A stretch of 62,832 nt of DNA, counting the filler. It is 6 parts of 6 records of this genome, joined end to end, with 100 filler letters (N's around TTAATTAATTAA, not from the genome) between each part and the next. Parts side by side here need not be neighbours in the genome. Positions count along the whole stretch, not along the records: positions 17,600 to 25,334 come from SRR31147125_5332; 5 more parts are not named here. One strand, given 5' to 3'. This document shows positions 3,724 through 25,334 of this stretch, piece after piece. Position 1 is the stretch's first letter; each line of letters opens with the position of its first letter. The position numbers and the translations under genes were made by a program. The notes under the pieces are model-generated. The model was given only the letters and a program-made list of their open reading frames with translations. It ran no database searches and had not been told where the DNA came from.

Positions 3724-4380
3724 ATGAATAATTCGAAAAAATTCGCTGTCGTTTTATCAGGTTGTGGAGTCTATGATGGCTCTGAAATTCATGAAGCAAC
3801 CCTCTCGATGTATGAAATAGCAAAAAGTGGTTGTTCGTACGAAATTTTTGCGCCAGATATAGATCAACATCATGTTATCAACCACCTCACCGGAAAAGAA
3901 ATGAACGAAACGCGTAACGTGTTGGTGGAGTCTGCAAGGATTGCAAGGGGCAAAATAAAACCACTATCTGAATTTGAGGCCAAAAATTTCGATATATTAT
4001 TTTTTCCGGGCGGTTTTGGCGCAGCAAAGAATCTTTCTAATTATGCTTTTAATGGTGCTGATTGTACTATAAACGAAGATGTTGAAAGTTCTGTTAAATC
4101 TATGATTGAGCTTAAGAAACCAGTCGGGGCATTATGTATCTCTCCTGTTATTTTAGGTAAATTATTAGAAGGTGTTAACGTAACAATTGGTAGCGACGAA
4201 GCAACCATTAACGAACTTAAAAAGATGGGGGCTAATCATAAGGATACAACCCATGGAGAAGTTGTTATTGATGAAAAATATAAAATTGTAACAACTCCTT
4301 GCTATATGCTGGATGCAACAATCGACCAAATTGGTGTTGGTGCAGAAAATGTTGTTAAGGCATTACTTGATATGGTATAG
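3724..4380 (+). CDS. elbB: ElbB/ES1 family glyoxalase (DJ-1/PfpI superfamily)
   Basis: LSGCGVYDGSEIHE, RNVLVESARIARG, PGGFGAAKNL, TTPCYM. Confidence 0.93.
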   Translation: MNNSKKFAVVLSGCGVYDGSEIHEATLSMYEIAKSGCSYEIFAPDIDQHHVINHLTGKEMNETRNVLVESARIARGKIKPLSEFEAKNFDILFFPGGFGAAKNLSNYAFNGADCTINEDVESSVKSMIELKKPVGALCISPVILGKLLEGVNVTIGSDEATINELKKMGANHKDTTHGEVVIDEKYKIVTTPCYMLDATIDQIGVGAENVVKALLDMV

Positions 4381-5789: not shown

Positions 5790-6059
5790 CTACTGGCCGA
5801 TCGTGGGAAGCTGGTTGAAAATTGAAGTCAGAAACGCGGAGGCCTTCTGTAGAATCCAGGGGGCAAAGATCAATAAAGTGACAAAGACTCCGACAATTTT
5901 CGGAATAAAGGTCATGGTCTGCTCATTGATCTGGGTTGCGGCCTGAAAAATACTGATCACCAGGCCGACCACCAGAGCGACGATCAACATCGGCGCCGCG
6001 CACATAAGCCCGGTCTCTATGGCTTGTCGGCCAATCGTGACCACAAATTCAGGCGTCAT
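5790..6059 (-). CDS. fliQ: Flagellar export protein FliQ
   Basis: GLVISIFQAATQINEQTMTFIPK; ATG at 6059 gives 89 aa. Confidence 0.95.
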   Translation of the reverse strand: MTPEFVVTIGRQAIETGLMCAAPMLIVALVVGLVISIFQAATQINEQTMTFIPKIVGVFVTLLIFAPWILQKASAFLTSIFNQLPTIGQ

Positions 6060-6082
6060 TTCTTCGACCTTTCCATCCAATA

Positions 6083-6204
6083 GAGCTCATCAAAAGGTTG
6101 CAGATGCAAGGCGGACGATCGACTGAAGATTGAGGCGTGGATAAAACCACGTCGAAAACTGAAGGCTGAGTCCAACACAGCAGATGCGAACTTTTCATGA
6201 GCTC
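6083..6204. repeat. ~122-bp palindromic MITE/RPE-like element between fliP and fliQ
   Basis: Imperfect terminal inverted repeats GAGCTCATCAAAAGGTTGCA / TGCGAACTTTTCATGAGCTC, central CGTGG-ATAAAA-CCACG hairpin. Confidence 0.65.
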
Positions 6205-6940
6205 ACCCAAAGCTCTGGACCAGGGAACCAATGACCAGAGACCAGCCATCAACCAGAACAAACAGCAGAATTTTAAACGGCAATGAAATGATGATCGGCG
6301 GTAGCATCATCATCCCCATCGCCATCAGGATCGACGCAACAATCATATCGATCATCAGAAACGGCACGAAAAGCAGAAACCCCATCTGAAAGGCCCGCTT
6401 CAGCTCCGACAGCATAAAGGCGGGAATCAGGGTCAGCATGGAGATGTCATCCTGGTTTTCCGGTTGAGGTGATTTTGAGATGTCGACCAGCAGCTGCAGA
6501 TCTTTTTCAGCCACCTGAGAGAACATGAACTGGCGCATCGGTTTGAGCGCCTGGTCGAGGGCCTGCTGCTGAGTGATCTGCTTGTCCATATAGGGCTGCA
6601 GCGCGTTGTCGTTGATCTCGGTGAACACCGGTGCCATAACGAAAAAGGTCAGGAACAGGGCCAGACCGATGACGATCTGATTCGACGGTGCCTGCTGGGT
6701 CCCCATCGCCTGGCGAACGAAGGACAAAACGATGACAATGCGGGTAAAGCCGGTCGTCATCAGCAGAATCGCCGGAGCGATGGAAAGAATGGTCAGAACA
6801 ATCAGGATCTGCAGCGCCGTCGAGACTTCCGACGGTTCTGTCGCTTCACCAATACCGAGTGTAATCGTCGGCAGCCCTTCCGCAAAGGCGACAGAAGGCA
6901 GAAGCAACAGGACAAGCATCAGCAGAGTTTTGAATCTCAT
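6203..6940 (-). CDS. fliP: Flagellar export protein FliP
   Basis: TGFTRIVIVLSFVRQAMGTQQAP, PAFMLSELKRAFQMG, MGMMMLPP, FVLVDGW. Confidence 0.97.
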   Translation of the reverse strand: MRFKTLLMLVLLLLPSVAFAEGLPTITLGIGEATEPSEVSTALQILIVLTILSIAPAILLMTTGFTRIVIVLSFVRQAMGTQQAPSNQIVIGLALFLTFFVMAPVFTEINDNALQPYMDKQITQQQALDQALKPMRQFMFSQVAEKDLQLLVDISKSPQPENQDDISMLTLIPAFMLSELKRAFQMGFLLFVPFLMIDMIVASILMAMGMMMLPPIIISLPFKILLFVLVDGWSLVIGSLVQSFG

Positions 6941-7308
6941 GAGGATTCCCCCTCAGCCTGCTGCAATGTTGTCGCAAAGTCTTCACCTGGAGGCAGCTTG
7001 GTCAGGCATTCAATGCGATCATTGCTGAGACCGAGCAACAGTTCTTCGTTGCGAACCTTGACCACGCAGAGAAACTTCCGTCCACCCAGAGGGCGCGTTT
7101 CAAGAACCTTGATCAGGCCTCCTTTTTTCTGTGGCAGGACACCAAATCCTTTACGGCTGGCGGCATAGATCAGTAATAGAATGCCGCAGATCACCGCCAA
7201 AGCGGCAACCATCTTGAGCGATGATCCCAGCAGGCTCGGTTCTGTCGCTGTTTCTGCAGCGATGACCGGCTGCGCGATCAGCAGAAAAAGAAAAACAAAA
7301 CGCATCAT
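6937..7308 (-). CDS. fliO: Flagellar protein FliO
   Basis: TM segment, IKVLETRPLGGRKFLCVVKV..EELLLG; lies between fliN and fliP. Confidence 0.88.
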   Translation of the reverse strand: MMRFVFLFLLIAQPVIAAETATEPSLLGSSLKMVAALAVICGILLLIYAASRKGFGVLPQKKGGLIKVLETRPLGGRKFLCVVKVRNEELLLGLSNDRIECLTKLPPGEDFATTLQQAEGESS

Positions 7309-7634
7309 CAGCCCAGATTCTCAATCCGCTCAGACGGGCTGACAACATCGGTCAGACGCAGGCCGAACTTGTCGTTCACGACAACCGCTTCCCCTCGGGC
7401 AATCAGGCGCGCGTTGACATACAGGTCAAGCGGTTCACCCGCAAGCTTATCCAGTTCAACCATCGATCCTTCCTGCAATTGCAAGAGGTCACGAACCAGA
7501 AGCCGCGAACGGCCGACTTCGACAGACACCTCAAGCGGAATATCCAGCAGCAGGTCGAGACCGCGATCATCGACGCCTTTGCCGGCACTTGTCTCCGCAA
7601 CAGGTTGTCCATTGTCCAATGTTTCATCACTCAT
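7308..7634 (-). CDS. fliN: Flagellar motor switch protein FliN
   Basis: LDLLLDIPLEVSVEVGR, LDKLAGEPLD, ARGEAVVVNDKFGLR. Confidence 0.96.
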   Translation of the reverse strand: MSDETLDNGQPVAETSAGKGVDDRGLDLLLDIPLEVSVEVGRSRLLVRDLLQLQEGSMVELDKLAGEPLDLYVNARLIARGEAVVVNDKFGLRLTDVVSPSERIENLG

Positions 7635-7637
7635 GAT

Positions 7638-8645
7638 CTATCCTCCATCGGGAATTCTTCCCATAACTCTGATCGCTTTTTTACCACCCTGAACTCCCGC
7701 CATGCCCAGGAACTTGGGGCGCTGCTCAACCATCACTTTGATCGGGATATCCGGCTTGCAGCCAAGATCGATCACATCCCCCACCTGAAAGTTGAGGATA
7801 TCGCGGACCCGCAGGGATAATGTTGCCAGGAGCGCTTCCAGCTCAACCTCCATATGATCGAGTTCCGTACAGACAACCGACCGCCACTTGGTATTCTGGG
7901 TCATACTCGGCGGAACAGCCTTGACCTGCTGCTTCTTCTGCAACGGGTCCAGAGCGGTATGAGGAATCACCAGGGTGATGTCTCCCTCAAGTGTGTCGAT
8001 CGTGACCTTAAAACGCGCTGCGACAACCCCGACTTCGGGTCCGACAAAATTCAGCAGACGCAGATTGCTGACCACCTCAACGAGAGATGACTCGATATCC
8101 TCCAGCTGCATGAAACCCTTGTCCAGCTCGGGACAGGCGCTCTTGATGACATCCTTGACCACGTTCAACTCGATGGCGCTCATGCCTCGATTCGGAATCA
8201 GCGTTTCGCTGTCGGACGAACCACCAAGAACCATCTCAACCAATGCGAAAGAGAGTTTTTCGTCAAAAATCAATAACCCACCGCCCGTCAGGGGCTCAAG
8301 CTGCAGAATGCCGATCGCTCCACGCCCGGATAACCGCTGAATCAGGCCGTCAAAAGCCATCGATTCCATCGCTTCCAGCTTGATATGCACCGAGCGCTGG
8401 AACCGTGTCGACATCGCCAGCGAATAGTTCCTGGCAAAGCTGTCGAGAATAAGGTCGTAGTTTTTAAGTTTCCAGCCTTCGGTTCCGTCGGACTTGAAAA
8501 GATTGCACAGCTCGGCTGACGCAGCGGTCCCCTTTTCATGAACCGCTGAACCAGGCTCCGCACCGACCGATTCGACATCGATATCGCCTTGCCTGACCGC
8601 CGACAGCAGGTCGGCAATTTCTTCTTTGCTGAGTATCTTTTCCAC
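7638..8645 (-). CDS. fliM: Flagellar motor switch protein FliM
   Basis: N-terminal ILSKEEIADLL, MVLGG middle domain, C-terminal SpoA domain (LNFQVGDVIDL). Confidence 0.93.
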   Translation of the reverse strand: MEKILSKEEIADLLSAVRQGDIDVESVGAEPGSAVHEKGTAASAELCNLFKSDGTEGWKLKNYDLILDSFARNYSLAMSTRFQRSVHIKLEAMESMAFDGLIQRLSGRGAIGILQLEPLTGGGLLIFDEKLSFALVEMVLGGSSDSETLIPNRGMSAIELNVVKDVIKSACPELDKGFMQLEDIESSLVEVVSNLRLLNFVGPEVGVVAARFKVTIDTLEGDITLVIPHTALDPLQKKQQVKAVPPSMTQNTKWRSVVCTELDHMEVELEALLATLSLRVRDILNFQVGDVIDLGCKPDIPIKVMVEQRPKFLGMAGVQGGKKAIRVMGRIPDGG

Positions 8646-8656
8646 GCGTTCGACCC

Positions 8657-9148
8657 CTACTGGACGACGAAATCGGTAAAGTAAATCCGCTTGACTTTCC
8701 CTTTGAGCAGGATGCTGTTCACCTTGTTGATCAGCTCGGCGCGCAGTTGAATCTTGCCCTGCAGATCACTCAGCTCAGAAAACGTCTTGTTGCCGATCAG
8801 GAGCAGGATCGCATCCTTGATCTGTGGCATCCTTTGAGTCAACTCCATCGATGTTTCTTCACCGTCAACCTCAAGCGTAATCGCTGCTTTCAGGTAGCGA
8901 CTCTCCGCATCATCAAGGATATTGACAATAAAGCTTTCAATGGTGACCATCGGCCCAACCTGTTTCGCCTGCATTTCCAGCTCGGCCTGTTCCTCTTCCG
9001 GTGAGAGTTTTTCCTCTTCTCCCCCCATCAGAAAAAATGCAGCCCCGCCACCACCGATCAGCAACACCAGAACTGCGGCAACAATGATGATCAGCTTCTT
9101 TTTCGATCCACCGCCCTCTTCAGGCTGCTCTGCTGCGTCTTTCGCCAT
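8657..9148 (-). CDS. fliL: Flagellar basal body protein FliL
   Basis: KKKLIIIV TM, FIVNI...RYLK, IYFTDFVVQ C-terminus. Confidence 0.95.
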   Translation of the reverse strand: MAKDAAEQPEEGGGSKKKLIIIVAAVLVLLIGGGGAAFFLMGGEEEKLSPEEEQAELEMQAKQVGPMVTIESFIVNILDDAESRYLKAAITLEVDGEETSMELTQRMPQIKDAILLLIGNKTFSELSDLQGKIQLRAELINKVNSILLKGKVKRIYFTDFVVQ

Positions 9149-9227
9149 CGATCTATCCTTTCATCTACTCCACGTTCAGCGGAGATTTCAGATTTACTAT
9201 TTCAAATCTTATTCTGATGACAGAGCA

Positions 9228-9959
9228 TCAGAATGGTGACTGTTCCTTGGCATCGATCAGGTAAGGAAGGTCCTGATTCGGGTCCCCCTGGCTCTCGAGG
9301 ACAAACTCGACCCGCCGATTCAATGCCATCTCTTCTTCACTGGCGTTCGGGAACAGAGGTTTCTGAGATCCATAGCCGGTCGCCGACATCCGCGTCAGCG
9401 GAATCAACTGATTCGTCGCCAAGAAGCGCAATACCGAAATCGAACGGTCAACAGACAGATCCCAGTTAACAATTTCATTGCCAAGATCGTCCGTATGTCC
9501 TTCGATTTTCAGGTTGAGGGGCAACGGACGGACCAGCTCAGCCACCTTACGCAAAATAGGTTCCGCTGCCGGTTCCAGAGCCGTGCTGTTTCTTTCAAAG
9601 AGAACAGCTTCGTCAACGCGTAACACAACCGCTCCACGATCCTTGGCCAGTTTAACTTTTTTATTCAGCTTCAATTCCCTGAGTTTGGTTCTTAAACGGC
9701 GATAGACCTGGGCATTAAAGTCATCGTTGACCGGAGAAAATGAGACCACCTGGGGAGGCGCGACCTCAGTTTTGTCCGCACTGCCGAGGACTCCAAACGC
9801 TCCCGCGAGAGAGTCACTTGCCTTGTTAAATTTAACCTTATCCATGTTCGCCATCGAGAGCAGCAGAACAAAGAAGGTGAGCAACAAAGTGACCAGGTCA
9901 CTGAATGTTGCCATCCACATTGGCGCGCCCGCTGGTGGGCATTTATGCTTTTTCGCCAT
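9228..9959 (-). CDS. motB: Flagellar stator MotB/PomB
   Basis: WMATFSDLVTLLLTFFVLL TM; OmpA domain IEGHTDD, NWDLS..R, NRRVE. Confidence 0.95.
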   Translation of the reverse strand: MAKKHKCPPAGAPMWMATFSDLVTLLLTFFVLLLSMANMDKVKFNKASDSLAGAFGVLGSADKTEVAPPQVVSFSPVNDDFNAQVYRRLRTKLRELKLNKKVKLAKDRGAVVLRVDEAVLFERNSTALEPAAEPILRKVAELVRPLPLNLKIEGHTDDLGNEIVNWDLSVDRSISVLRFLATNQLIPLTRMSATGYGSQKPLFPNASEEEMALNRRVEFVLESQGDPNQDLPYLIDAKEQSPF

Positions 9960-9971
9960 GGTCGGTCCCTT

Positions 9972-10736
9972 TTAGCCGAAGTTACTCTGACGCTCTTTGG
10001 GAGCAACAAAGGCATGCAGTCGCTGTTCCATGAGTCGTGGGTTTTCACCTTCGAGAATGGCTTTCATCCCTTCCGTGACCAGAGTCTTATTCAACACTTC
10101 GCTCGCGGACCGGAGTTTCAATTTACCCGACATCGGGTTCGCAACAACGTTCGCAATAACAGCGCCATAAAAGGTGGTCAACAGGGCAACAGCCATCGCC
10201 GGCCCGATTGAGGAGGGATCACTCATGTTCTGCAGCATCTGCACCAGACCGATCAGGGTTCCGATCATTCCCATGGCCGGTCCATAAGCTGCGATTGTGG
10301 CAAAAATATCAGCTCCCTTGTCATGACGTTCCATGACATATTCGATCTCTTTTTCCAGCATATCCTTCAGGGCTTCCGGCTCCTGACCATCGACCGCCAT
10401 CTGCAACCCCTTGAGGAAGAACTCGTCATCAATTTCCCCCATTACCGACTGGAGTGAAAGAATCCCCTCTTTACGTGCCTTGCCAGCGTAAGTAATCAGT
10501 TTTTCAATGATCTCAACAGGCGGCTGTGATTTGTGGAAAAAAGCCTTCCGGGCGACACTAAAGGCTCCAAGAACATCTCCCATAGGGAAATGAACAAGGA
10601 CAGTTCCTGTCACGCCTCCAAAAACAATAATCATCGAGGCAACATCGATGAACATCATCAGCGATCCACCTTGCAGGATTGCTGAAAGCATCAACCCAAA
10701 CGCTGCCACCATACCAATAATTGTCGCGAGATCCAT
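9972..10736 (-). CDS. motA: Flagellar stator MotA/PomA
   Basis: ARKEGILSL, FLKGLQMAVDG, PAMGMIGTLIGLVQML, MAVALLTTFYG. Confidence 0.96.
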   Translation of the reverse strand: MDLATIIGMVAAFGLMLSAILQGGSLMMFIDVASMIIVFGGVTGTVLVHFPMGDVLGAFSVARKAFFHKSQPPVEIIEKLITYAGKARKEGILSLQSVMGEIDDEFFLKGLQMAVDGQEPEALKDMLEKEIEYVMERHDKGADIFATIAAYGPAMGMIGTLIGLVQMLQNMSDPSSIGPAMAVALLTTFYGAVIANVVANPMSGKLKLRSASEVLNKTLVTEGMKAILEGENPRLMEQRLHAFVAPKERQSNFG

Positions 10737-10829
10737 ATCTGTCCTCTATCCCGTATTTAATCGTTCATCCGATGAACGCATTCAACATTGTGACGCTTTT
10801 ATGACAAACTTAGCTCCGCCTAACTGTAT

Positions 10830-10845
10830 AGCAGGGAGCATGCCA
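10830..10845 (-). promoter_or_regulatory. Sigma54 (-24/-12) promoter for motA-fliR
   Basis: Minus strand TGGCATGCTCCCTGCT = GG-N10-GC. Confidence 0.75.
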
Positions 10846-10910
10846 CTTTAATAAATAATTATAATTATTTTTTTATGTCGATTTTTCAAACAGTTACACA
10901 ATAGAAACAG

Positions 10911-10950
10911 ACAAAAAAACAATGCCGTCTCTGCATTGCAGGACGGCATT
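10911..10950 (-). terminator. Intrinsic terminator after flgE
   Basis: AATGCCGTC...GACGGCATT hairpin followed by a T run on the minus strand. Confidence 0.75.
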
Positions 10951-10984
10951 ATCTTGTGATGTCATGTTTTTGACTTAATCATGT

Positions 10985-12337
10985 CTAGCGCTTCAGGTTA
11001 ATAACTTCCGACAACATCTCGTCCGTCGTCGTGATCGTTTTCGAGTTGGCCGAAAAACCACGTTGGGTTGTAATCATCTTGACAAACTCCTGAGCCAGAT
11101 CGACGTTTGACAGTTCGAGAGAGTTGGTAAAAATCGACCCAACACCAGAACCGACCGTTCCGATGATCGGCACACCCGAGTTAGTACTCTGTTCGTACAT
11201 GTTATTGCCGATCTTATCGAGGGCATTCGGGTTGGTGAATTTAGCCAGAGCGAGTCGCATCAATTTCCGCGGGGTCCCGTTAGAAAAGTTGCCGATGATG
11301 TTTCCGAACTCATCAACACTGAGTTGAACCAGTGTTCCCGTCCCGTAACCATCCTGTTCCTGAGAAACAACCACCGACGGGCTGGCGTACTGACTGGTCT
11401 GCATGTCGATCTCAACCTGCTGGGTTTGAACCGCGGTATTAGCCCAAGCCAAAGCACCTGCAGTCGTCTGTGCTGTCGGGCGTGGTAACACCGGGTCACT
11501 GTCCGCGTCGCCCGGTGTCGAATGCAGAGAGGTTCCATCAATTGTAATTAACCGCCCGCTGGCATCAAACTCAAGCGTTCCGTTACCGACGATGGCCAGC
11601 TCACCGGAGACACCACTCCCCGTAATCCCGGCGACCGCATTGATCTCACCGCCATCAACGACAGTGTTGTATTGCCAGTTCAGATCGGACGTTTTGGTGA
11701 AATAGGTGGTCATCAAATGGGTACTACCGAGGCTGTCATACACCTGTATCGACGTTGCGTAACTCGATGTTCCGGTTGGATCGGTCCGGTCGAACCCCGC
11801 CGCAATAGCGGAAGAATCGGAATCGAGGTTCGTGTTCAGATCAATATTTGCCGTTGGCCCTGCTGCCGTAAACGACTGCGTGTTTGCCTGAATCGGAATC
11901 AGATCACCAACAGTATTACCATCAGCATCGAGCTCAAATCCCATCAGATTAAAACCCTCCGGATTGACCATATAGCCATCGGCATCAAAGCGGAAAGCCC
12001 CGGCTCGGGTGTAGTTATTCACTGAGTTGCCGCCGGAAGGATCGCTGACAATAAAAAAACCATCGCCTTCGACCGCGAGGTCGGTGTTAGTCTCGGTATT
12101 TTCAAAGGTGCCCTGGCTGAAAATATTATCGACGATCGACAGGCCGACACCACGACCCACCTGCGAGGTACCACCAGAGCCGGAAATCTGACTCGAAAGC
12201 AAATCACCAAAGATCGCCCGGCTCGATTTGAAGCCGATGGTGTTGGCGTTGGCGATGTTGTTACCGATAACGCTCATGGCGTTCCCGTTGGCATTCAGAC
12301 CACTGACACCACTGTATAAAGAACTGGATACTCCCAT
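10985..12337 (-). CDS. flgE: Flagellar hook protein FlgE
   Basis: GVSGL...VIGNNIANANTIGFK, YTRAGAF, LELSNVDLAQEFVKMITTQRGFSANSK. Confidence 0.96.
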   Translation of the reverse strand: MGVSSSLYSGVSGLNANGNAMSVIGNNIANANTIGFKSSRAIFGDLLSSQISGSGGTSQVGRGVGLSIVDNIFSQGTFENTETNTDLAVEGDGFFIVSDPSGGNSVNNYTRAGAFRFDADGYMVNPEGFNLMGFELDADGNTVGDLIPIQANTQSFTAAGPTANIDLNTNLDSDSSAIAAGFDRTDPTGTSSYATSIQVYDSLGSTHLMTTYFTKTSDLNWQYNTVVDGGEINAVAGITGSGVSGELAIVGNGTLEFDASGRLITIDGTSLHSTPGDADSDPVLPRPTAQTTAGALAWANTAVQTQQVEIDMQTSQYASPSVVVSQEQDGYGTGTLVQLSVDEFGNIIGNFSNGTPRKLMRLALAKFTNPNALDKIGNNMYEQSTNSGVPIIGTVGSGVGSIFTNSLELSNVDLAQEFVKMITTQRGFSANSKTITTTDEMLSEVINLKR

Positions 12338-12353
12338 TTTTGTCTCCTTGTCG

Positions 12354-12407
12354 GAGCCGCGTCAATCGGTCGGCGGCTCGCGAACCTCCTCAAAGAGGAC
12401 CGGTTCG
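12354..12407 (-). promoter_or_regulatory. Candidate structured RNA in the flgE leader (two hairpins)
   Basis: CGAACC-GG-UCCUC-UUU-GAGGA-GGUUCG followed by GAGCCGC-CGACCGAUUGAC-GCGGCUC, immediately before the flgE SD (AAGGAG). Confidence 0.55.
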
Positions 12408-12408
12408 G

Positions 12409-12792
12409 TTAGGCAATAACTGCGCTGTCTATATTGGTAAAAACGTTATTCTTTAACTGTGCCCTGTCAACGACGGTCACAACCGTATCGTTTTTGACAC
12501 TGACAACCAGGGCGGTGTCATCAAGCATCACCAGGGATTCCTTGCCACCCTTGGCATTGACCTGTGATACAGCCGTTTCCAATCTCTCGATCTGACTGGC
12601 GTTAAACGCGATTCCACGACTGCTCATGCGATCGGTCGCGTGCTTCGAAAATTTGACCTGCTGGCCCTGTTCAATCCGATTCTGGAGCAGCTGATCGAAA
12701 CTGCCGCTGACCGCAGTCGACTTCCTGGCTTGATGACCCTGCGGTTGCGGCGGGGTTATCGGTTGCGGGATAATCGTGATGCGATCACTCAT
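12409..12792 (-). CDS. TIGR02530 flagellar operon protein (Flagellar_put)
   Basis: KFSKHA..RM..RGI, KGGKESLV, VSVKNDTVVT, NVFTNIDSAVI; between flgD and flgE. Confidence 0.9.
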   Translation of the reverse strand: MSDRITIIPQPITPPQPQGHQARKSTAVSGSFDQLLQNRIEQGQQVKFSKHATDRMSSRGIAFNASQIERLETAVSQVNAKGGKESLVMLDDTALVVSVKNDTVVTVVDRAQLKNNVFTNIDSAVIA

Positions 12793-13451
12793 AACGTAGC
12801 CCCGGCTCTTTCAACTTTGGCCATGGAGAAAGAACCCGATGTGGTTTCCAACTCGGCCACAGAGCCGCTCATATCAACCGCTTGAACCTGGCCTTTGACC
12901 AGGGGTGAAGACTCCACCAGGCGATCTTCCTCATCAACCGCACGGATCACCAGTGAATAGTCGCCCGGCTCCAACGGCACGCCTAAATCGCTCATCCCGT
13001 CCCAGTTAACAAAATATTCACCAGTCGCAGTTTCCTGACCTGTAACCGTAGCCAACGTGGAGCCTGCCTCACTCAAAATGTACATTTTCACGTCATCGGC
13101 CGGAGCCTCCAGGCGATAACCCAGATCAATGGCTTCACCACTGAAATGGAAACTATCTGTCTGAGCGACAACATCCTGACCGATCAGGCCAAGCGCGGAC
13201 ATCCGCCCCATCTCCGTACTCATCGACGTCAAGCCTTCCAGGCCCGTATTGATATTAGTCAACTGTTCAAGCTGACTGAATTGAGCCAGCTGAGCGGTAA
13301 ACTCAGTTGGATCAGACGGGTTCATCGGGTCCTGGTTTTCAAGTTGAGCCACCAGAAGCAGAAGGAAATCTTCCTTGCCCATCGATACATCTTCTGTACC
13401 TGTGGACGTTGTCGTGGTGTACCCGGTATTGATTCCGCTGATTGCTGACAT
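12789..13451 (-). CDS. flgD: Hook capping protein FlgD
   Basis: MGKEDFLLLLVAQLENQDPMNP, AQLAQFSQLEQ, WDG Ig-like domain. Confidence 0.96.
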   Translation of the reverse strand: MSAISGINTGYTTTTSTGTEDVSMGKEDFLLLLVAQLENQDPMNPSDPTEFTAQLAQFSQLEQLTNINTGLEGLTSMSTEMGRMSALGLIGQDVVAQTDSFHFSGEAIDLGYRLEAPADDVKMYILSEAGSTLATVTGQETATGEYFVNWDGMSDLGVPLEPGDYSLVIRAVDEEDRLVESSPLVKGQVQAVDMSGSVAELETTSGSFSMAKVERAGATL

Positions 13452-13483
13452 TTAGACCATTCTCCTTTCTTAAGATTTTGGTC

Positions 13484-15088
13484 TTACACGTGGAGGCTGA
13501 TGCCCCCGCCACCATTCTGAATCAGGTGGGCTAACGGGATCGCGTTTTCTTCCTGATCCTGCGTTGACTGATGATCGTTTCCTGTCTGCTGGAAGTCATC
13601 TCTTGAATTTTCCTGCGCCAGTTGATCAAATTCACTGCCTTGCTGACGCTGATCGAGGCCGACCTGAAACTGGTCGATCTTCAATCCCTGTTCAGCCAGG
13701 GCATTGCGCAACTGCGGAAGGTTCCGTTCCAGAACTTCCTGAACCTGCAACGTTTGTGCATGTAGATTCGCTCTGACACGATCCCCCTCAACCATGAGAT
13801 CGAGCTTTAACGAACCAAGCTCCGCCGGCTGAAGCCGAAGAATCATCCGTCCCGATTCGCCATTGTTGCTGCCCGAGATATGGGTCACGACCTGGTCAAA
13901 AATCTGACTTTCTGCAACCTGATGACCACTTGGAAGTTGAACCATCGGAGTTTGAGGCATAACCTTGGCGGCACCATTTTGTCCGGCGGTCACGATTCCC
14001 TGAGTGGCCCCTTGAACCACCTGTGCCAGTCGCTCCATCCCTTTCGGCAGAGGATTCCCTTCAAGCAGCTCCTTCAAACCACTTCCGTCGGTCGGACTGG
14101 TCGCACCTTCTGCGTCCGGCAGATCAATCACTGCGCTTTCGCTCGATGTCACATTCTTCGCAGCACTCTTTGTTTCCACCTGCTGGCGGAGACTCTGTTG
14201 CGGCTGAGCCTGCTGTGCCCGTGGTTTCAGAAGCTGAGCAAACCGTGGATCCATGCCCTCGGTCATGTCATCGGCGATGACCACCTCTTCCGTTGCTGTT
14301 TCAGATGTGGCATTTTCCGTTGTTGCTGCGGCATTCGTCTGCTGCGATTGAACGGCGTTGATCGCCCGTTGCAGAATCTCGCGTGCCTGAGCCATCGCTC
14401 CGACCTTTGACGATGTTTCTGTTGAAACGGCCACTCCGTTGTCAACGGCAACAGTCAATGCCGCGGGAATCTCTTCCCCCGTAAGCGGCTGCTGTTCCAA
14501 CTGCTGTTCCAACTGCAGTGCCAGCTGATCCGCCAACTGTTCCAGTGAAACCTCATCACCATCGACGACCACCTGCTGCACCTGCTGCACCTGCGCAACC
14601 TGTTCCACCAGTGCCGACAGGTCTACACCCGCCAGAACCTGCTCACCATGCAGATCACTCTCTTCAAGCTGCACGACCAGTTGGTTCAAAAGCTCCTGAG
14701 TCTCCGTGTCAGACGATTCCTCTTGACCGGCAACAACCTTCATCAACGCCACAAGTGTCTGCTGAAGTTTTGGTTGTACCTGCAAAAGCTGATCGTCTTC
14801 GACCGCAACGGCCAGAGATTCCTGACTAACGACATCAGCGTCCTGCACTTGCATTGACTGGGATTCATTTCCGTCGCTCAGTCCTGCTTTTTCAGCGGGT
14901 TTCTGCTGTGCGGAAGCGTTCCCATCCAGCTTCTGACTGGCATTGAGATCACGTTTCTCTGGCTGCCCCTGCTCCTGCATCACCGTTTTGAACGGTTTGC
15001 CTTTCGGCTCCGTCGTTTGCGCGGGAATGACCGTATCCATCGTGTTCTTTCCTGTATCGATCATGGACAATGCTTGCATCTGTTTCAC
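13484..15088 (-). CDS. fliK: Hook-length control protein FliK
   Basis: Long Q/E/A-rich region; C-terminal LRLQPAELG...LERNLPQLRNALAEQGL; upstream of flgD. Confidence 0.9.
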   Translation of the reverse strand: MKQMQALSMIDTGKNTMDTVIPAQTTEPKGKPFKTVMQEQGQPEKRDLNASQKLDGNASAQQKPAEKAGLSDGNESQSMQVQDADVVSQESLAVAVEDDQLLQVQPKLQQTLVALMKVVAGQEESSDTETQELLNQLVVQLEESDLHGEQVLAGVDLSALVEQVAQVQQVQQVVVDGDEVSLEQLADQLALQLEQQLEQQPLTGEEIPAALTVAVDNGVAVSTETSSKVGAMAQAREILQRAINAVQSQQTNAAATTENATSETATEEVVIADDMTEGMDPRFAQLLKPRAQQAQPQQSLRQQVETKSAAKNVTSSESAVIDLPDAEGATSPTDGSGLKELLEGNPLPKGMERLAQVVQGATQGIVTAGQNGAAKVMPQTPMVQLPSGHQVAESQIFDQVVTHISGSNNGESGRMILRLQPAELGSLKLDLMVEGDRVRANLHAQTLQVQEVLERNLPQLRNALAEQGLKIDQFQVGLDQRQQGSEFDQLAQENSRDDFQQTGNDHQSTQDQEENAIPLAHLIQNGGGGISLHV

Positions 15089-15127
15089 CTCCTTTCCTTT
15101 GATTTTTTTGTCTTGGGGTTAATGCCC

Positions 15128-15631
15128 CTAGTTATCCTTCACCGGTATTTCGGTAAAAGCCTTGCTCAATTCGGTTGCGGTTCCTTCGTCGAGACTGTCA
15201 AGGATTTTGCCTGCAACTTTCTTCTTGATCCCCAACAACAGATCTACGGCCAGCTGTTCATCCAATTCCTTGATCAGTGCGGCCGCTTTTTGCGGGTTCA
15301 TCTTTTCATAAATCCGACTCAACTCGCCGACCCGTTCGTTCTCGGCATCGTCTTTGCGATCCAGCAGTTTGACCAGTTCATCTCTCAATTTCTGCATCGC
15401 CGCGAGCTTCTTATCGACCTCTGCTTCCAGGGTCTTTAGCTGCATTTCACGGGTTTCGATCTTGGTCACCTTTTCATCCAGCTTGGCGTACTCATCCTCG
15501 ATAGAAACGAGAATACGTCTTTCCTCGACCGACGAGATTTTGTCGTCCTCCATCAGACCCGGCGTTTCAGCACTGACCGACACCGACAGACAACAAAGGA
15601 TCAACATCAAAACCAGAGCTCCCCTTTTCAT
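15128..15631 (-). CDS. MotE/FlbB-like (MgtE_N-like) periplasmic flagellar protein
   Basis: Signal/TM, coiled coil, LSRIYEKMNPQKAAALI...AGKILD. Confidence 0.8.
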   Translation of the reverse strand: MKRGALVLMLILCCLSVSVSAETPGLMEDDKISSVEERRILVSIEDEYAKLDEKVTKIETREMQLKTLEAEVDKKLAAMQKLRDELVKLLDRKDDAENERVGELSRIYEKMNPQKAAALIKELDEQLAVDLLLGIKKKVAGKILDSLDEGTATELSKAFTEIPVKDN

Positions 15632-16067
15632 GAGCCATCCCCTTTAGTACGCAGGCTGATTTCATCCAACATGGCCCGTTCCTGGCGGGTCAGCTCCTGA
15701 CGAAATTCAGCATCTTTCTTTTCTTTGAGTTTCTCCATAATCTGCCGATCGCGGCAGCCTTCTGCAAGTCATCCCGTTCTTCGACAATCCTCTGATCCAG
15801 CAGCTCAAGCTTCGCCTGCAGTTGCACGATAACGCGGCGACAATGACCGATCTGAGATTCGAACAGATCGATTTCGGCAACCGTCAAACCATCCTTCTGG
15901 CGTTCCCGAAGTTCTGCGTCATAGTGGCTGAGAGCGTTGTTCTGCTTCTGGATATCGGCCTCCAGATCAGAGCGCTGCTGCATGCTGGCCGCGAGGACCT
16001 GCTGCGCCTGATCTTCGATCGACTGCCGATAGTTGAGCACCGATTGCAGTTTAAATCGCGCGGCCAT
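15628..16067 (-). CDS. fliJ: Flagellar export chaperone FliJ, frameshift near 15752
   Basis: FKLQSVLNYR start; second frame continues DRQIMEKLKEK...ERAMLDEISLR to TGA at 15628-15630; follows fliI. Confidence 0.88.
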
Positions 16068-16070
16068 CGA

Positions 16071-17393
16071 TTAACGCCCTCCCCGTCTGCGGTCCTGTAA
16101 CAGATCTGCCAGAGATTCCGTTGTCGCCTCCAGAGTGACGGCATCATTCATCCCCTGCTGCAAGAACTGAAGAATCGCATCCATCTGTGAAATGGCGTAA
16201 TCGATCTTGCCGTTACTGCCTTCAGCGTAAGCACCGATATTGATCAAGTCTTCCGCTTCCTTATAAGTCGCCATAATTTCTCTGACCCGACCATTCAACT
16301 GCAAATGTTCAGGGCTGACGATGTCACGCATAACCCGACTGGCAGAATTGAGAATATCGATCGAGGGATAATGATTCCTGGCAGCAAGATCGCGGGACAG
16401 GACAATGTGCCCGTCAAGGATTGAACGGACCGCATCGGCGACCGGCTCGTTCATGTCATCTCCTTCAACCAGCACCGTGTAAAGACCGGTGATACTCCCT
16501 TTGCCTTTGAAATTTCCAGCCCGCTCAAGCAGCTTGGGCAATGTGGCAAATACCGATGGGGTATACCCTTTGGTCGTCGGCGGTTCACCAATCGCCAGCC
16601 CCACCTCACGCATGGCCATGGCAAAGCGCGTCACCGAATCCATCAACAACAGGACATTCTTTCCCTGGTTACAAAAATATTCCGCAATCGTCGTCGCAAC
16701 AAAAGCACCGCGCATCCGCAGCAGCGGAGACTGATCCGACGTCGCGGTAATCACGACGGAACGTTTCAACCCTTCCGGACCCAGATCACGCTCAATAAAT
16801 TCGCGCACCTCGCGGCCCCGCTCCCCAATTAATGCGATAACGTTAATATCAGCCTGGGTGTGTTTGGCCATCATGCCAAGCAGAACACTCTTGCCGACAC
16901 CAGACCCAGCCATGATTCCCATCCGCTGCCCAGTACCACAAGTGAGCAGGCCATTGATCGCCTGGACCCCCAGATCGAGTGGGTGGAGGATCGGCTTACG
17001 TAACATCGGGCTGGGAGGCAAAGCATACAGAGGGCATTCCTGCTCACAAGAGCCCAGGGGCCGCTCGTCGAGCGGTTGACCCAGCGCATCGAGGACCCGC
17101 CCCAAGAGATGATCGCCCACCGGAATCGTCGCGCTGTCGCGCACGACCTGAATCAGACTGCCCGGACCGAGCCCACGGAGATCCCCAAGAGGCATCAGAA
17201 GAGCGCGCGAGTCACGGAAACCAACAACCTCGGCCGGAACCGGGTCTCCACCACCAAGAGGGATCAGCTGACAGAGCGTCCCGACGGTCGCCGTCGGGCA
17301 GTATCCTTCGACAACCAGACCAACGATCTGGATCACCTTCCCGCTCACCTTCAGAGGGTTAACTGCTTTGACACACTCGACGAGATCGATCAT
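16071..17393 (-). CDS. fliI: Flagellar export ATPase FliI
   Basis: AGSGVGKS Walker A, IGERGREV, LLLMDSVTR, GEPPTTKGY. Confidence 0.97.
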   Translation of the reverse strand: MIDLVECVKAVNPLKVSGKVIQIVGLVVEGYCPTATVGTLCQLIPLGGGDPVPAEVVGFRDSRALLMPLGDLRGLGPGSLIQVVRDSATIPVGDHLLGRVLDALGQPLDERPLGSCEQECPLYALPPSPMLRKPILHPLDLGVQAINGLLTCGTGQRMGIMAGSGVGKSVLLGMMAKHTQADINVIALIGERGREVREFIERDLGPEGLKRSVVITATSDQSPLLRMRGAFVATTIAEYFCNQGKNVLLLMDSVTRFAMAMREVGLAIGEPPTTKGYTPSVFATLPKLLERAGNFKGKGSITGLYTVLVEGDDMNEPVADAVRSILDGHIVLSRDLAARNHYPSIDILNSASRVMRDIVSPEHLQLNGRVREIMATYKEAEDLINIGAYAEGSNGKIDYAISQMDAILQFLQQGMNDAVTLEATTESLADLLQDRRRGGR

Positions 17394-17499
17394 TCGGCAT
17401 CCGTAATCGCTTCATTCAGCGCAATTTGAATTGCCTCAAGTTGGGTTTCTATGGTCGCATCAACTTCACCAAGATCCGAATCGACCCGACATCCCCCGG
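17390..17499 (-). CDS. fliH: FliH C-terminal fragment
   Basis: GGCRVDSDLGEVDATIETQL...; stop overlaps the fliI start (ATGA). Confidence 0.8.
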
Positions 17500-17599
17500 N
17501 NNNNNNNNNNNNNNNNNNNNNNNNNNNNNNNNNNNNNNNNNNNTTAATTAATTAANNNNNNNNNNNNNNNNNNNNNNNNNNNNNNNNNNNNNNNNNNNN
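17500..17599. other. Artificial contig linker
   Basis: N44-TTAATTAATTAA-N44. Confidence 0.99.
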
Positions 17600-19406: not shown

Positions 19407-20965
19407 TTATACATAATCAAAATTTTCTTGTGCTTCAAGCCATTTACCATGACCACTATGAAGAATGAAACAAATAACAGCCATAATAAGGTATCCAATC
19501 ATAAATGGAGATTTAGGATAAATACCTAATTGTGCACTATGGATAAATCCAAAGAACGAAAGCGCAGCAGCGACAAGGATAACATATGCGGCCTTGTCTA
19601 AACGTCTGTCAATTATAAACACAACTAAAGTACCTAAGATAATACCAATTATAATTGCACCAGATTTTACAGCAGGAACACCATTCCACATTACTCCTGC
19701 AGCTAATAAATTATTTGTTATTTCTGGTCCATATCCTGATAAACCAGACGGAAGTGTTTCTGTCCAAACATTTGACAGACCTACAGCTCCTGTAACCTGT
19801 GTAAACATATAATCTGCTATTGGTGGTACCATGGCAATACCAACACCAGCGAAATGTTTTTTCTCACACTCTTTGAATGCTTGTGAAAGCATAATGATAG
19901 AGCACCATAGATAAGTAATCGCTGCAATTGCAGGCGGTACAAGTGAACTAAAGAATGTAAATAGACCAAAGATTCCTGATATTCCTAATAAAATTCCACC
20001 TAACCAAGAGAATCCTATGCCGGCACCAGCTTTTTTTAAACCTGCATGTCCTAACCAAACAGTGTTTGGCACAACTCCACCAAATAGAGCTGAAATCATC
20101 GTACAGATACCATCAGCGAACTGCGCATTTCTTACGTTATAATTATCTCCAGCAGCATTGGCAGATTCAACGTTATCCATTGTTTCGATGAAGTTATATA
20201 TTTCAATAGGGATAATGATCGAAAGGTATGGAGTAACAACAGCCAAACCATTAATCAAACCTTGGATCCCAGTAATAGGATTTGGGGCATAAAAGCCAAT
20301 ACCTGTGAAATCGACTTTTGTACGACCAATAACTAGAGCATAGATGATTCCTCCGATGATAGCAACAGCAAATGGTGGGATTTTTTTGGGAAAAGGTATC
20401 CCCCAAATACACCAACTAGTGCAACCATTAAGATTGGTAAACCGATTACAGGATCACTATATAAATCAAATACCCCTTGTGTAGCCATCCAGATAAACCC
20501 TATACCAGCTACTGTTCCAAGCAGGGCAGCTCTGGGAAGTTTTGCTTTTAGCCATGGACCAATAAATCCACCAATAAACTCAATTCCTCCACCGATAAAA
20601 GTAGCTGCAACCGCTGCCGACCATTCAAGTTCTGGGTTATCAAGAGCATAGTGTAGAGGCATAATAACACCGAATAGTATAACAAACATTGCAGGTGTAG
20701 AGACACCAGAAGGTAGCGCCGTAACATCATTTCGACCTTCTCTTTTATGCAATCTATATGCAATCAGTGCGTAATATAAACCACTTGCTAATAGTCCTAT
20801 TGACATCCCTGGAATAACTCTACCATAAACGATATGATCCGGCCATCCGAGTACTCCTGATAAAGTAGCGATAACGATGATGTAGTTAACAATATTATTT
20901 GCTAGGATATATGTCAAGCCACCTATGTCACCTTTATTAAAAATTGCTAATCTGTTTTTATTCAT
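19407..20965 (-). CDS. NCS2/AzgA-like nucleobase permease, frameshift near 20380-20390
   Basis: Two hydrophobic ORFs joined across a T run; GRNDVTALPSG, LPRAALLGTVAGI, NVESANAAGDNY; cotranscribed with the ade genes. Confidence 0.8.
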
Positions 20966-22751: not shown

Positions 22752-24530
22752 CTATTCCATAAGTTCAAGAATAGGATCAAAAGTAGTAAGTGAAATACAA
22801 TCAACTGGTCCAACATCTGTAATTGCATAATCTGGAATTGCAGTGATTGGCAGGAAGAACATGTACATTAATGGTTCTGGCAAGTCACATCCTAATTCAT
22901 TAGCGGCTTTTGTAAGCAGAGTTTCTCTGTGAGCAATCTCTTCAGCATCCAGATCACTTGCGATTCCACCAACAGGTAACGCTAAGAACTCTATTACTTT
23001 TCCATCAGCAACGATTACTTGTCCTCCACCATTTTCGATAAGGTGATTTACTGCAATAGACATATCAGCAGCATCTGCTCCCATTACAATGATATTATTA
23101 TCATCTGGTGCAGCTGATGATGCCATTGCACCTTTTTTTAGTTTCCATCCAGAGCAAAATGCTAGGGATTTATTACCATTTCTACCAAATCTTTCCAGAA
23201 CAGAAACCATTAGGATATCCTCTTCGATATCTGGTTGAACAATCGAATTTTTTACTTCAAGAACAGCATCTCTTCTTTTTCTAACAAAAGGACCCTCAAC
23301 ATTCATAGAAAGAACTTTTGCTTTTCCATTTTTAATATTTACTTTGTATTCAAAATCTTCTTTAGTTGTCATCTTACATTTTAAAGCACTGCTTAGAATA
23401 GCACTTCTTTTAGGGGCAACTAAATTATAGTTTAGTTGCTTGTTTTCAGCTACTAAACGACCATTTGTAATAACAGCTTCAACATTGAAATCAGTTGGGT
23501 TATCAACTAATAGAATATCAGCTATTTTACCTGGAGTAATTGAACCAATCATATGATCAATTCTGTATGCTTCAGCACTATTAATAGTAGCCATTTGAAT
23601 AGCCACCATTGGCGAAACACCTTCGTTAATAGCCAGACGTACAACATTATCAACATGTCCTTTGTTAAGGACATCTGTTGCTGTTACATCATCAGTACAG
23701 AAGCTAACTCTTCTTGCAAAAGCAGGATTTACTTCAGTAACTGCTCTTATATTTTCTTTTAGGAAATGAGTAACAGATGATTCTCTAATCAACATGTGCA
23801 TACCTTTTCTCATTTTCTCCACAACTTCTTCATGATCATAACTCTCATGATCAAGCCTTATTCCAGCACAAAGATAAGCATTTAGATCCTTGCCTCTTGC
23901 CATAGGAGCACAGCCAAATACCGGTAAACGATTTTTGAATGCTTCCTCAATAGCTCCAAGGGTATCTTCATCCTCAACCTGTACAAATTCTCTAACTGTT
24001 TCCCAAACGCCGTAGCATTCCGGCCAGTTTTGAACTTCTGCATGTACATTTTGGTTAAAATTAAAAGCAACCGTAGAGCTTGGGAAAGTATAAGGTGTTT
24101 TGAAAGGAGCTCCCCAAAAAACTTTAAGCGGACTTGCTTTAATTTCCTGGAATACTTCCTTTAAACCCTCTAATCCAGCGACAGAGATATATTCATCCAG
24201 TCCTGAGATTATACTTGTTGTTCCACAAGGCACTACGGCTTTTGCAAAGCTTGTTATACTTAGTTTACTACATTCACTATGAATATGTCCGTCAATAAGT
24301 CCAGGTACCAGATATTTGCCAGTGGCATTGATCTCTTTTGTCTCTGGTCCAATATAATCACTTACATCACCAATAGCAACAATAGTATCTCCATAGATAG
24401 CTACGTCAGCTGGATAGATCTCACTTGACATGACATTAACTAAGTTTCCATTACGAATGACAGTGTGTGCTGGAATGATTCCTCTTCCTGCACGAATAAG
24501 TTGTTTCAAGTTTTCTCTGTTTTTTTCCAT
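22752..24530 (-). CDS. Adenine-deaminase-family amidohydrolase, divergent paralogue
   Basis: DGHIH, DHES and FCTDD kept; DPHE->GLDE, GHSP->GCAP, AHDSHN->APDDNN. Confidence 0.85.
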   Translation of the reverse strand: MEKNRENLKQLIRAGRGIIPAHTVIRNGNLVNVMSSEIYPADVAIYGDTIVAIGDVSDYIGPETKEINATGKYLVPGLIDGHIHSECSKLSITSFAKAVVPCGTTSIISGLDEYISVAGLEGLKEVFQEIKASPLKVFWGAPFKTPYTFPSSTVAFNFNQNVHAEVQNWPECYGVWETVREFVQVEDEDTLGAIEEAFKNRLPVFGCAPMARGKDLNAYLCAGIRLDHESYDHEEVVEKMRKGMHMLIRESSVTHFLKENIRAVTEVNPAFARRVSFCTDDVTATDVLNKGHVDNVVRLAINEGVSPMVAIQMATINSAEAYRIDHMIGSITPGKIADILLVDNPTDFNVEAVITNGRLVAENKQLNYNLVAPKRSAILSSALKCKMTTKEDFEYKVNIKNGKAKVLSMNVEGPFVRKRRDAVLEVKNSIVQPDIEEDILMVSVLERFGRNGNKSLAFCSGWKLKKGAMASSAAPDDNNIIVMGADAADMSIAVNHLIENGGGQVIVADGKVIEFLALPVGGIASDLDAEEIAHRETLLTKAANELGCDLPEPLMYMFFLPITAIPDYAITDVGPVDCISLTTFDPILELME

Positions 24531-24540
24531 AAAAAAAAAC

Positions 24541-24634
24541 CTCCTATAAAAATTTTAGTTGGATAGACCGGCCATAAAAATGGCAAACCAGGTTTCCCGT
24601 CCTGCAGCACCTATCTCGACGAATTTTATATGAG
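24541..24634 (-). promoter_or_regulatory. Candidate riboswitch-like leader RNA of the deaminase/permease operon
   Basis: GC-rich three-way junction (GAUAGG/UCUAUC, CAGG/CCUG, GCCA/UGGC) on a long basal stem whose 3' arm contains the SD. Confidence 0.55.
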
Positions 24635-25119
24635 ATTAAATATTAAAAAAATATTTAAATACATATTAGCATAGAAATTCAAAAATTAAAACCCAATTTA
24701 TCATTAATCTAATAGATATTTTCAATGTTTAGTATATGCTTAATATATAATTGGCTGTATCGCAAGCATCTATTGGTGATAATATTAATTAAAAATTTAA
24801 TTTATATAGAGAAGCTATGAGAGTAATTGGAAAACATCATATGAAAAGAGAAAGAGAAAATCTAAGATATTTTTGATCGAGGACTTACACCGATTGAAAT
24901 GATTAATAAAATAGAACTTAATATATAAATAATTTGAATAGCTTAATATTTAAAAATCTACATATTTGACTTTGCTGGAAAATGGTGTTAAAATTTATAG
25001 TAATACAGAGAGTGTTTATAGCAAAAAATGTAGATGAATTTTATATGCAAACATGTGAAGTTGAGGAAGAAATAGGAAATTTTATTATATATAGAATTTA
25101 AAGAGGAGAACGATTATTT

Positions 25120-25334
25120 ATGAATAGAAAAGAGGATAAATTTTTCTTTTTAAATAAGGTATCTCGGTTAACTGAAGAAAATGGGGATTATAGCGTCTAC
25201 ACTATATATCCTGAATATGGAGAGGGAACATTTTCACTTTTTAGATTGACCAGAGAGATCTATCTGCTGGTTAATAAATTTAAGTTAAATAATAATGCAA
25301 TAACAAATGATGCAAGTGAATATGAGAAGTTTTT
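25120..25334 (+). CDS. Probable AraC-family regulator N-terminus, truncated
   Basis: GGAG SD; PEYGEGTFSLFRL..EIYLLVNKF resembles PchR-like AraC N-termini; HTH not visible. Confidence 0.45.

Follow-up and report, generated by a model that had tools for sequence, protein, structure and literature searches.

The window analysed here is a stretch of 62,832 nucleotides (nt), made of six parts joined end to end with filler. On its minus strand a set of three genes, encoding an unusual adenine-deaminase paralogue, a canonical adenine deaminase and an AzgA-like permease, is preceded by a structured RNA element (Table 1). A first-pass annotation, made from the letters of the sequence, had described a GC-rich island in the spacer upstream of these genes, which would fold into a three-way junction with stems GAUAGG/UCUAUC, CAGG/CCUG and GCCA/UGGC, closed by a basal helix running into the Shine-Dalgarno (SD) sequence of the first gene. 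This description holds. The GC content is 0.48 at 24559-24627 and 0.22 in the remaining spacer, and the three stems lie at the places given for them on the minus strand and are returned by the minimum free energy (MFE) structure from RNAfold. The basal helix, P0, is part of the same structure, with one bulge and one mismatch, and has moderate support (a duplex of −6.0 kcal/mol, compared with −3.6 kcal/mol in shuffled sequences, p 0.09). In the ligand-free MFE structure three of the four scored SD bases are paired, with a pair probability of 0.70. The invariant AAAUUC box, which falls within the basal helix of the first-pass annotation, is itself a core part of the motif.

Table 1. Positions of the element, its parts and the genes it precedes, counted along the window
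Feature	Position	Strand	Support or remark
Motif core (box, P1, P2, P3)	24559..24627	-	Covariance-model match
5' box AAAAUUC	24621-24627	-	AUUC near-invariant in the class
P1 5' strand GAUAGG	24610-24615	-	Pairs with 24562-24567; covariation
P1 3' strand UCUAUC	24562-24567	-	RNAfold MFE and covariation
P2 hairpin: CAGG, loop ACGGGAAA, CCUG	24604-24601, 24600-24593, 24592-24589	-	Invariant heart of the motif
P3 hairpin: GCCA, loop UUUUUA, UGGC	24584-24581, loop, 24574-24571	-	Variable; some members without P3
P0 5' strand CUCAUAUAAAAUU (anti-SD CUC plus UAUAAAAUU, overlapping the box)	24622-24634	-	MFE, duplex test
P0 3' strand AAUUUUUAUAGGAG, running into the SD	24541-24554	-	MFE, duplex test
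SD GGAGG of the first gene	24540-24544	-	Sequence read-off
Start codon AUG of the first gene	24528-24530	-	Sequence read-off
First gene, adenine-deaminase paralogue, 592 amino acids, FGCAP type	22752..24530	-	Pfam Adenine_deam_C and Amidohydro_1
Second gene, canonical adenine deaminase, 577 amino acids	20998..22731	-	TIGR01178, 635 bits, above cut-off
Third gene, AzgA-like permease, split into open reading frames 20333-20965 and 19407-20258	19407..20965	-	tblastn

To compare orthologous leaders, one genome per species was scanned with the first gene, which gave 156 relatives; the best 80 of these (L001-L080, 74-86% identity) were kept, and come from Anaerovoracaceae, Clostridium, Lachnospiraceae, Oscillospiraceae, Fusobacterium, Desulfoluna and Sphaerochaeta. 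The motif is present on the coding strand, 59-568 nt 5' of the gene, in 64 of the 80 loci, which belong to four phyla. Among the 16 loci without the motif there are 7 in which the gene directly follows another gene, and is therefore not first in its operon. The shared design consists of the AAAUUC box, a helix P1 whose sequence differs between clades while its pairing is kept, the hairpin CAGG-ACGGGAAR-CCUG (P2), usually a third hairpin (P3), and the return strand of P1. RNAalifold on a MAFFT alignment (A2) recovered only P2 and P3, with P1 out of register, and because of this misregistration P1 was supplied by hand for the covariance model R1, built from 47 trimmed sequences, which then served for realignment. 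Run on the window with filters off, R1 returns the element at 24559-24627 on the minus strand with 74.8 bits (E-value 9.8e-16), the next best match having 13.3 bits (E-value 1). Over the 99 sources it finds 101 elements at an E-value of at most 0.01 (100 distinct rows), with the same score for the copy in the window.

The 100 distinct rows, which come from mutually related sequences and are aligned by fitting to the model (A3), a procedure that favours its structure, have 90.8% of cells paired, compared with 72.1% after shuffling (equalled by 0 of 500 shuffles), 259 cells changed on both sides, compared with 68.9, and a covariation score of 0.429, compared with 0.145 for shuffles and at most 0.089 for slid partners. 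The covarying pairs include all eight of P1, all four of P3 (where 81% of cells are paired) and two of the four in P2; the remaining two P2 pairs never vary, and members elsewhere in the class have UAGG/CCUA or CGGG/CCCG in place of CAGG/CCUG. In a separate ranking by mutual information, the top column pairs are again those of P1 and P3, and no convincing partner emerged for the variable base after AUUC. Over the 101 matches, columns 4-7 of A3 (AUUC of the box) are 99-100% conserved and positions G38-A46 of the P2 region 97-100%, an invariance of the P2 loop that is in part imposed by the pattern used for searching. The first-pass annotation had named orthologous leaders and covariation as a check on its reading, and this check comes out in its favour, with the motif kept in most leaders and compensatory changes present; that the element is a real, conserved cis-regulatory RNA is close to certain.

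Two further relations were seen or sought within the alignment. Columns 53 and 56 of A3, in J2/3, change together (G..C, A..U, U..A) in 79% of rows; they are spaced by two nucleotides, too close for a hairpin, and a tertiary contact or common descent may account for their correlation. A pairing of the P2 loop with the pyrimidine-rich linker of members that have no P3 was not supported, the longest complement having a mean of 4.73 compared with 4.29 in shuffled linkers (33 cases).

A pattern scan blind to gene content gave at least 119 stretches. The model R2, rebuilt from the 101 matches of R1, found 85 elements in 71 loci when run on the first 100 of these, and the stretches that it did not confirm are consistent with our estimate of about 44 chance pattern matches. 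In five whole genomes R2 finds 1, 1, 1, 2 and 1 copies, every one at this gene set. The carriers of the class are gut Lachnospiraceae, Clostridium, Fusobacterium, Desulfoluna and spirochaetes. For the 98 elements with a callable open reading frame downstream, the first gene is the deaminase paralogue in 87 cases, an inflated share, since that protein was the basis for choosing 49 of the 99 sources; it is the ATPase of a Bmp-type ATP-binding cassette (ABC) importer in 8 cases and an MtmB-family protein in 3. The importer of the eight ABC-first operons has two BPD_transp_2 permeases. The usual operons comprise the paralogue, adenine deaminase and either a 520-residue permease (35) or, replacing it, an ABC importer (6). 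The paralogue, the canonical adenine deaminase, the AzgA-like permease and the Bmp-type ABC importer form a narrow, purine-related regulon, in line with the first-pass view of the operon as a purine-type riboswitch target.

Tandem arrays of three to four units occur in L016, L189, L195 and Sphaerochaeta. The four-copy arrays (L016 3408-3978, L189 2078-2622 on the minus strand, and L195 5032-5500) have a spacing of about 75-170 nt; their upstream units each close with a U-run, and the last unit is of the SD type. At L075 3564-3742, in a Tyzzerella metagenome-assembled genome, a 6S RNA (RF00013, 67.6 bits) lies about 150 nt 5' of the motif.

The ABC-first operons bring the motif next to a known sensor. 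Seven of the eight have a purine riboswitch (RF00167, 53-64 bits, gathering threshold 37) on the same strand, 100-200 nt 5' of the new motif; at the eighth the sequence covers only about 310 nt upstream. Six deaminase-first loci submitted to the same Rfam scan gave no purine riboswitch. In the purine aptamers of the ABC operons the base aligned to the specificity position is C, a mark of guanine-type sensors, and each aptamer is followed, 5' of the new motif, by a hairpin and a U-run of its own. Because two aptamers in series normally read different ligands, guanine is unlikely as the ligand of the new motif. The seven purine riboswitches (L205 1656-1758 on the minus strand, L188, L158, L113, L135, L161 and L155) have UACGCU in J3/1, where Rfam has GACU, and AAUAAGG or AAUACGG in L2; with these unusual letters, they could represent a variant of the guanine class with a different specificity. 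The accessible part of a review of tandem riboswitches describes guanine-phosphoribosyl pyrophosphate and other two-class tandems, in which a guanine-type aptamer and then a different element precede one operon (PMC9481103); unlike in those, each element here has its own terminator and the second partner is undescribed.

A second gene context comes from spirochaetes. Eleven stretches from spirochaete assemblies carry a variant of the motif with GAGG replacing CAGG, and this variant passes R2 in nine of nine cases at 30-49 bits, and in L218 and L219, two loci added by a second pattern scan, at 45.6 and 43.7 bits. The first gene there encodes an MtmB-family protein of about 460 amino acids without an in-frame stop, which matches PF05369 over its full length at 311.9 and 323 bits (threshold 25 bits). 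It is followed by an energy-coupling factor (ECF) type importer (PF09819 S component, fused ATPase and CbiQ) or by a member of the permease family of the deaminase operons, the permeases of the two contexts being 54% identical. Close MtmB-like relatives are encoded at 26 loci (L220-L245), and the motif lies 5' of the gene in all 10 of the spirochaete group. At 10 loci inspected, the MtmB-like gene neighbours the permease in four, an ECF importer in four, a Bmp-type ABC importer in one and none of these in one. Since the paralogue and the MtmB-like protein are unrelated and fill the same slot beside the same three importer types, they provide the strongest clue for a single imported substrate. 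One Oceanispirochaeta genome with the MtmB version has the canonical adenine deaminase and lacks the paralogue, and in Robinsoniella a deaminase homologue adjoins the MtmB-like gene.

The association of MtmB-like genes with purine-type importers is seen in spirochaetes, Desulfobacterales, Anaerolineae, Planctomycetota, Chloroflexi and Robinsoniella. The Sphaerochaeta operons (L023 3986-4249, L049 and L162) also have, after the permease, a conserved gene for 87-88 amino acids that has no Pfam or NCBIfam match.

The expression platforms are of more than one kind. A script assigned the 100 distinct members to those with a U-run directly after P1 (42), those with an SD within 25 nt (38) and others (20); after inspection the window element and L195:5435 were moved to the SD type, which leaves about 40 terminator, about 40 SD and 20 other members. 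The translational control proposed in the first-pass annotation is thus retained for the window, where a terminator scan of 24300-25200 found none, and given up as a rule for the class, since about 40 of the 100 distinct members end in a terminator. In the SD types, an anti-SD a few bases 5' of the box pairs with the SD while AAAU of the box pairs with an adjacent AUUU, and the anti-SD and the SD flank change jointly across clades (UCCAAU with AUUGGA, CUCAUAU or CUUUUAU with AUAGGAG); the P0 duplex has a mean z of −1.24 over distinct SD-type leaders. At least three SD bases are paired in the MFE structure of 38 of 40 SD-type members (mean pair probability 0.73), and P1, which is the terminator stem, is present in that of 33 of 33 terminator types and favoured by a mean of 8.5 kcal/mol, both counts being made without a matched control set. 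Among these 33 members we saw no common alternative pairing that competes with P1. The spirochaete form of the box, AAAUUCC, pairs with GGAAUU at a distal site, and in two loci this distal sequence duplicates the SD region. These duplications were located at L088, about 3830-4030 on the minus strand, and in L101: GGUGGAAUU occurs twice 3' of the aptamer, as a decoy and as the SD before AUG, both copies being complementary to the 5' box, and from its sequence the arrangement looks like a relay-type expression platform.

Because a switch needs two states and the predicted ligand-free fold is already off, the ligand would turn expression on. In the ligand-free window RNA, P1 would be stacked on P0, with the box and the anti-SD paired to the SD region and the ribosome-binding site buried. 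On binding, the ligand would then organise the surroundings of the P2 loop into a structure that takes in the AAAUUC box, whose UUC may pair with GAA of the loop, drawing the box out of P0 and freeing the SD, so that the deaminase paralogue, adenine deaminase and purine-type permease would be expressed. In preQ1-I and SAM-II riboswitches, a ligand-bound hairpin loop captures a single strand otherwise used by the expression platform, and the proposed ON switch would likewise have a hairpin loop capture a platform strand on ligand binding; in contrast to those classes, the captured strand here lies 5' of the hairpin, the proposed pairing comprises only UUC/GAA, and the sequences are unrelated. 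If the element is a riboswitch, these predicted folds modestly favour ON over OFF.

The usual reading of such a junction would be the reverse, because P1 covaries and encloses a conserved junction. The element would then be the same new class acting as an OFF switch, in which the whole three-way junction is the aptamer and the ligand, signalling sufficiency (hypoxanthine, xanthine or an adenine nucleotide, for instance), stabilises P1 as the terminator stem or stacked on P0. The covariation of P1 together with P3 around the conserved junction is indeed what most junction riboswitches have, and in about 40 of 100 members a U-run immediately follows the 3' strand of P1. End-product repression is common for purine-salvage genes, which agrees with an OFF switch, as does the partner purine riboswitch of the ABC operons, which resembles one and could form a NOR gate with the new motif. 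However, the ligand-free fold already has its terminator or its paired SD in nearly all members counted above, and no shared antiterminator or anti-sequestor was seen that would produce a ligand-free ON state. The distance from box to P2, which ranges from 9 to 20 nt across members, is ill-suited to a fixed tertiary contact if P1 is rigid, and next to a guanine-type riboswitch there would be no need for another sensor of a guanine-like product. We regard the OFF switch as an unlikely, if serious, alternative.

A leader bound by a protein is less probable still. A conserved RNA-binding regulator would recognise the invariant loop and box, much as PyrR acts on pyr leaders through repeated sites and terminators. 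The best-conserved part of the motif, a short hairpin with an 8-nt loop and a single-stranded box, has a size typical of protein sites, and repeated units do exist. Nevertheless, no candidate regulator is consistently encoded in the operons, the element is kept over four phyla with terminator and SD outputs alike, and its position in series with a purine riboswitch and its covarying multi-helix junction fit a self-contained sensor better, so we hold a protein site to be improbable. The last alternative, a diverged member of the purine, xanthine-I/NMT1 or guanidine-II class, could appeal to a three-way junction and purine gene context that resemble the purine class and to a loop starting with ACGG, as guanidine-II loops do, but it is very improbable given the Rfam results that follow and conserved letters unlike those of any class known to us.

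A cmscan search of all 62,832 bases against Rfam 15 (4227 families), another check named in the first-pass annotation, gave no match at gathering level, and a local scan of 24450-24800 (351 bases) with E-values up to 10 returned only snoRNA and miRNA noise (E-values of 0.9 or more). In six related loci the scan likewise gave no match on the motif, while it detected the purine riboswitch alongside at 61.5 bits. The purine-riboswitch hallmarks, reported missing at first pass, are indeed absent from the window, where RF00167 does not match even at E-values up to 10, against 53-64 bits in the seven neighbouring loci that serve as a positive control. With a 4-bp P2, the P2 loop given in Table 1 and UUUUUA as the P3 loop, the element lacks the complementarity of L2 and L3, and no purine junction strings were found. 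The resemblance to the purine riboswitch is one of plan: in both, P1 closes a three-way junction, the element precedes genes for purine salvage and transport, terminator and SD platforms are used, and multiple copies are possible. Where the purine riboswitch has two kissing loops, the new motif has a short P2 with an invariant 8-nt loop; its P3 is dispensable, it has an extra invariant 5' box, and it lies 3' of a genuine RF00167 member in seven of eight ABC operons, so it is a separate sensor.

Two other classes invite comparison. Guanidine-II (mini-ykkC) consists of two kissing hairpins, each with an ACGR tetraloop, and it shares with the new motif a short G-C-closed hairpin whose loop opens with ACGR; the new motif, in contrast, has a single hairpin within a junction, an 8-nt loop, no Rfam match and purine genes. 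Xanthine-I has two stems around an internal loop and is mostly proteobacterial; it gives no Rfam match here and has another gene set. Its likeness lies in its history, as the accessible text of PMC7373994 presents the NMT1 motif as a one-time orphan linked to purine breakdown genes. We found no description of the present motif in full-text searches of the literature or in three survey papers, a search with subscription papers and supplementary tables outside its scope. The tandem-riboswitch review, in its accessible part, records unnamed orphan partners and leaves them undiscussed (PMC9481103), and the motif could be among them. We take the class to be undescribed, although there is a real possibility that some existing candidate list already includes it without a name.

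The genes of the window help to narrow down the ligand. The first gene, called unusual at first pass, represents a distinct subfamily: it scores 385.8 bits against the adenine deaminase equivalog TIGR01178, under the cut-off of 472.5, and has FGCAP in 80 of 80 orthologues, while a crude check found DGH[SA]P in 57 of 80 neighbours of the paralogue. The Cys of FGCAP stands where PDB 3NQB and the canonical neighbour carry a His that is presumably a metal ligand, and the other motifs of the family (HxH, DHE and TDD) are kept. The permease has no Pfam or NCBIfam match, and among named Atlas clusters the AGZA xanthine/uracil permease family is the nearest, which is a lead only. Its reading frame changes near an A7 run at about 20381-20387, which gives open reading frames of 210 and 283 amino acids; with an intact orthologue of 521 amino acids as the query, tblastn places residues 4-197 and 194-521 in different frames. 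The break is either a homopolymer sequencing error or a genuine inactivation. Apart from this operon, the window contains a block of about 11 kb (6001-17500) with a GC content of 0.48-0.53, within a window of 0.25-0.37, whose minus strand encodes flagellar export proteins (a type III secretion system-type ATPase at 16071-17393, FliJ at 15690-16067 and a FliK-like gene at 13484-15088); the block may stem from a chimeric assembly or represent a foreign island.

The element has the general features of a riboswitch, namely a structured conserved leader with compensatory changes, varied expression platforms and a coherent gene set, and it is quite probably a direct metabolite sensor. The first-pass proposal of a possibly new riboswitch for a purine or modified purine is supported by the lack of an Rfam match, by leader conservation with compensatory changes, by the distinct deaminase and by the purine regulon. 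We consider it likely that the element represents a new riboswitch class for an adenine-related compound, acting as an ON switch on genes of import and breakdown. Taken together, the findings indicate a purine-like base or nucleoside other than guanine. The leading guess, held tentatively, is a ligand of the N6-methyladenine type (N6-methyladenine or another N6-substituted adenine), because this is the simplest compound that a hydrolase of the deaminase family and a protein of the methylamine-methyltransferase family could both dispose of and that purine-type importers could carry. N6-methyladenine was already among the candidates listed at first pass. Plain adenine comes second and is rather unlikely; another purine derivative is a substantial possibility, and something else altogether is doubtful.

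Two lines of published work bear on the leading guess. The adenine-deaminase family includes the N6-methyladenine deaminases Bh0637 and Bsu06560 (YerA), binuclear enzymes acting on N6-substituted adenine, according to PMC8643624, and the paralogue is a member of that superfamily. Quaternary-amine demethylation has been linked to a non-pyrrolysine MtmB homologue (PMC13044021). At its most ambitious, the proposal would make the motif the first riboswitch class with a methylated nucleobase as its ligand, sensing N6-methyladenine released from modified DNA or RNA and inducing its uptake and its disposal, either by the Cys-variant paralogue, through removal of methylamine, or by the non-pyrrolysine MtmB-family protein, through demethylation; in some operons it would form a gate with the guanine riboswitch that reads "purine-starved AND substrate present". 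This complete scenario is possible, and we regard it as less likely than not to be right in all its parts.

Several points weigh against an adenine-related ON switch, in addition to the limits given with the counts above. The fold of the window alone (−24.3 kcal/mol) is no better than that of shuffled sequences (−23.35 ± 3.44 kcal/mol, z −0.28, equalled by 79 of 200 shuffles) and so proves nothing by itself, and a promoter scan of the minus strand upstream of the element gave no consensus promoter. P0 is individually significant in just 9 of 39 distinct SD-type leaders and missing in some, such as those of L016, L117 and L189, and the proposed contact between box and loop is beyond the reach of covariation because it consists of 3 bp between invariant bases. 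The motif is absent from the other 16 MtmB-like loci (15 from Desulfobacterales, Anaerolineae, Planctomycetota, Robinsoniella and others, and the Spirochaetaceae locus L245). The MtmB-like protein might be no methyltransferase at all, since no corrinoid protein was found among the 10 flanking proteins scanned at four loci. YerA is also a poor model for the paralogue, which resembles its 201-residue chain (9jql) only weakly, at 46 bits, and is nearer to 3NQB, at 244.7 bits, from which it differs by the Cys of FGCAP.

Riboswitch classes with more than 100 members over several phyla are now rarely found, and each has pointed to poorly understood metabolism. The natural tandem of a guanine riboswitch and the new motif would add an RNA logic gate with two inputs, and the aptamer, compact at about 65 nt, could find use as a sensor component. 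The class marks three families that have no assigned substrate, namely the FGCAP paralogue, the permease without a Pfam model and the non-pyrrolysine MtmB homologue, which, if our reading is true, share one compound. Identification of the ligand would annotate all three families together, and would reveal the route by which an adenine derivative, which may be the epigenetic base N6-methyladenine, is recycled in anaerobes.

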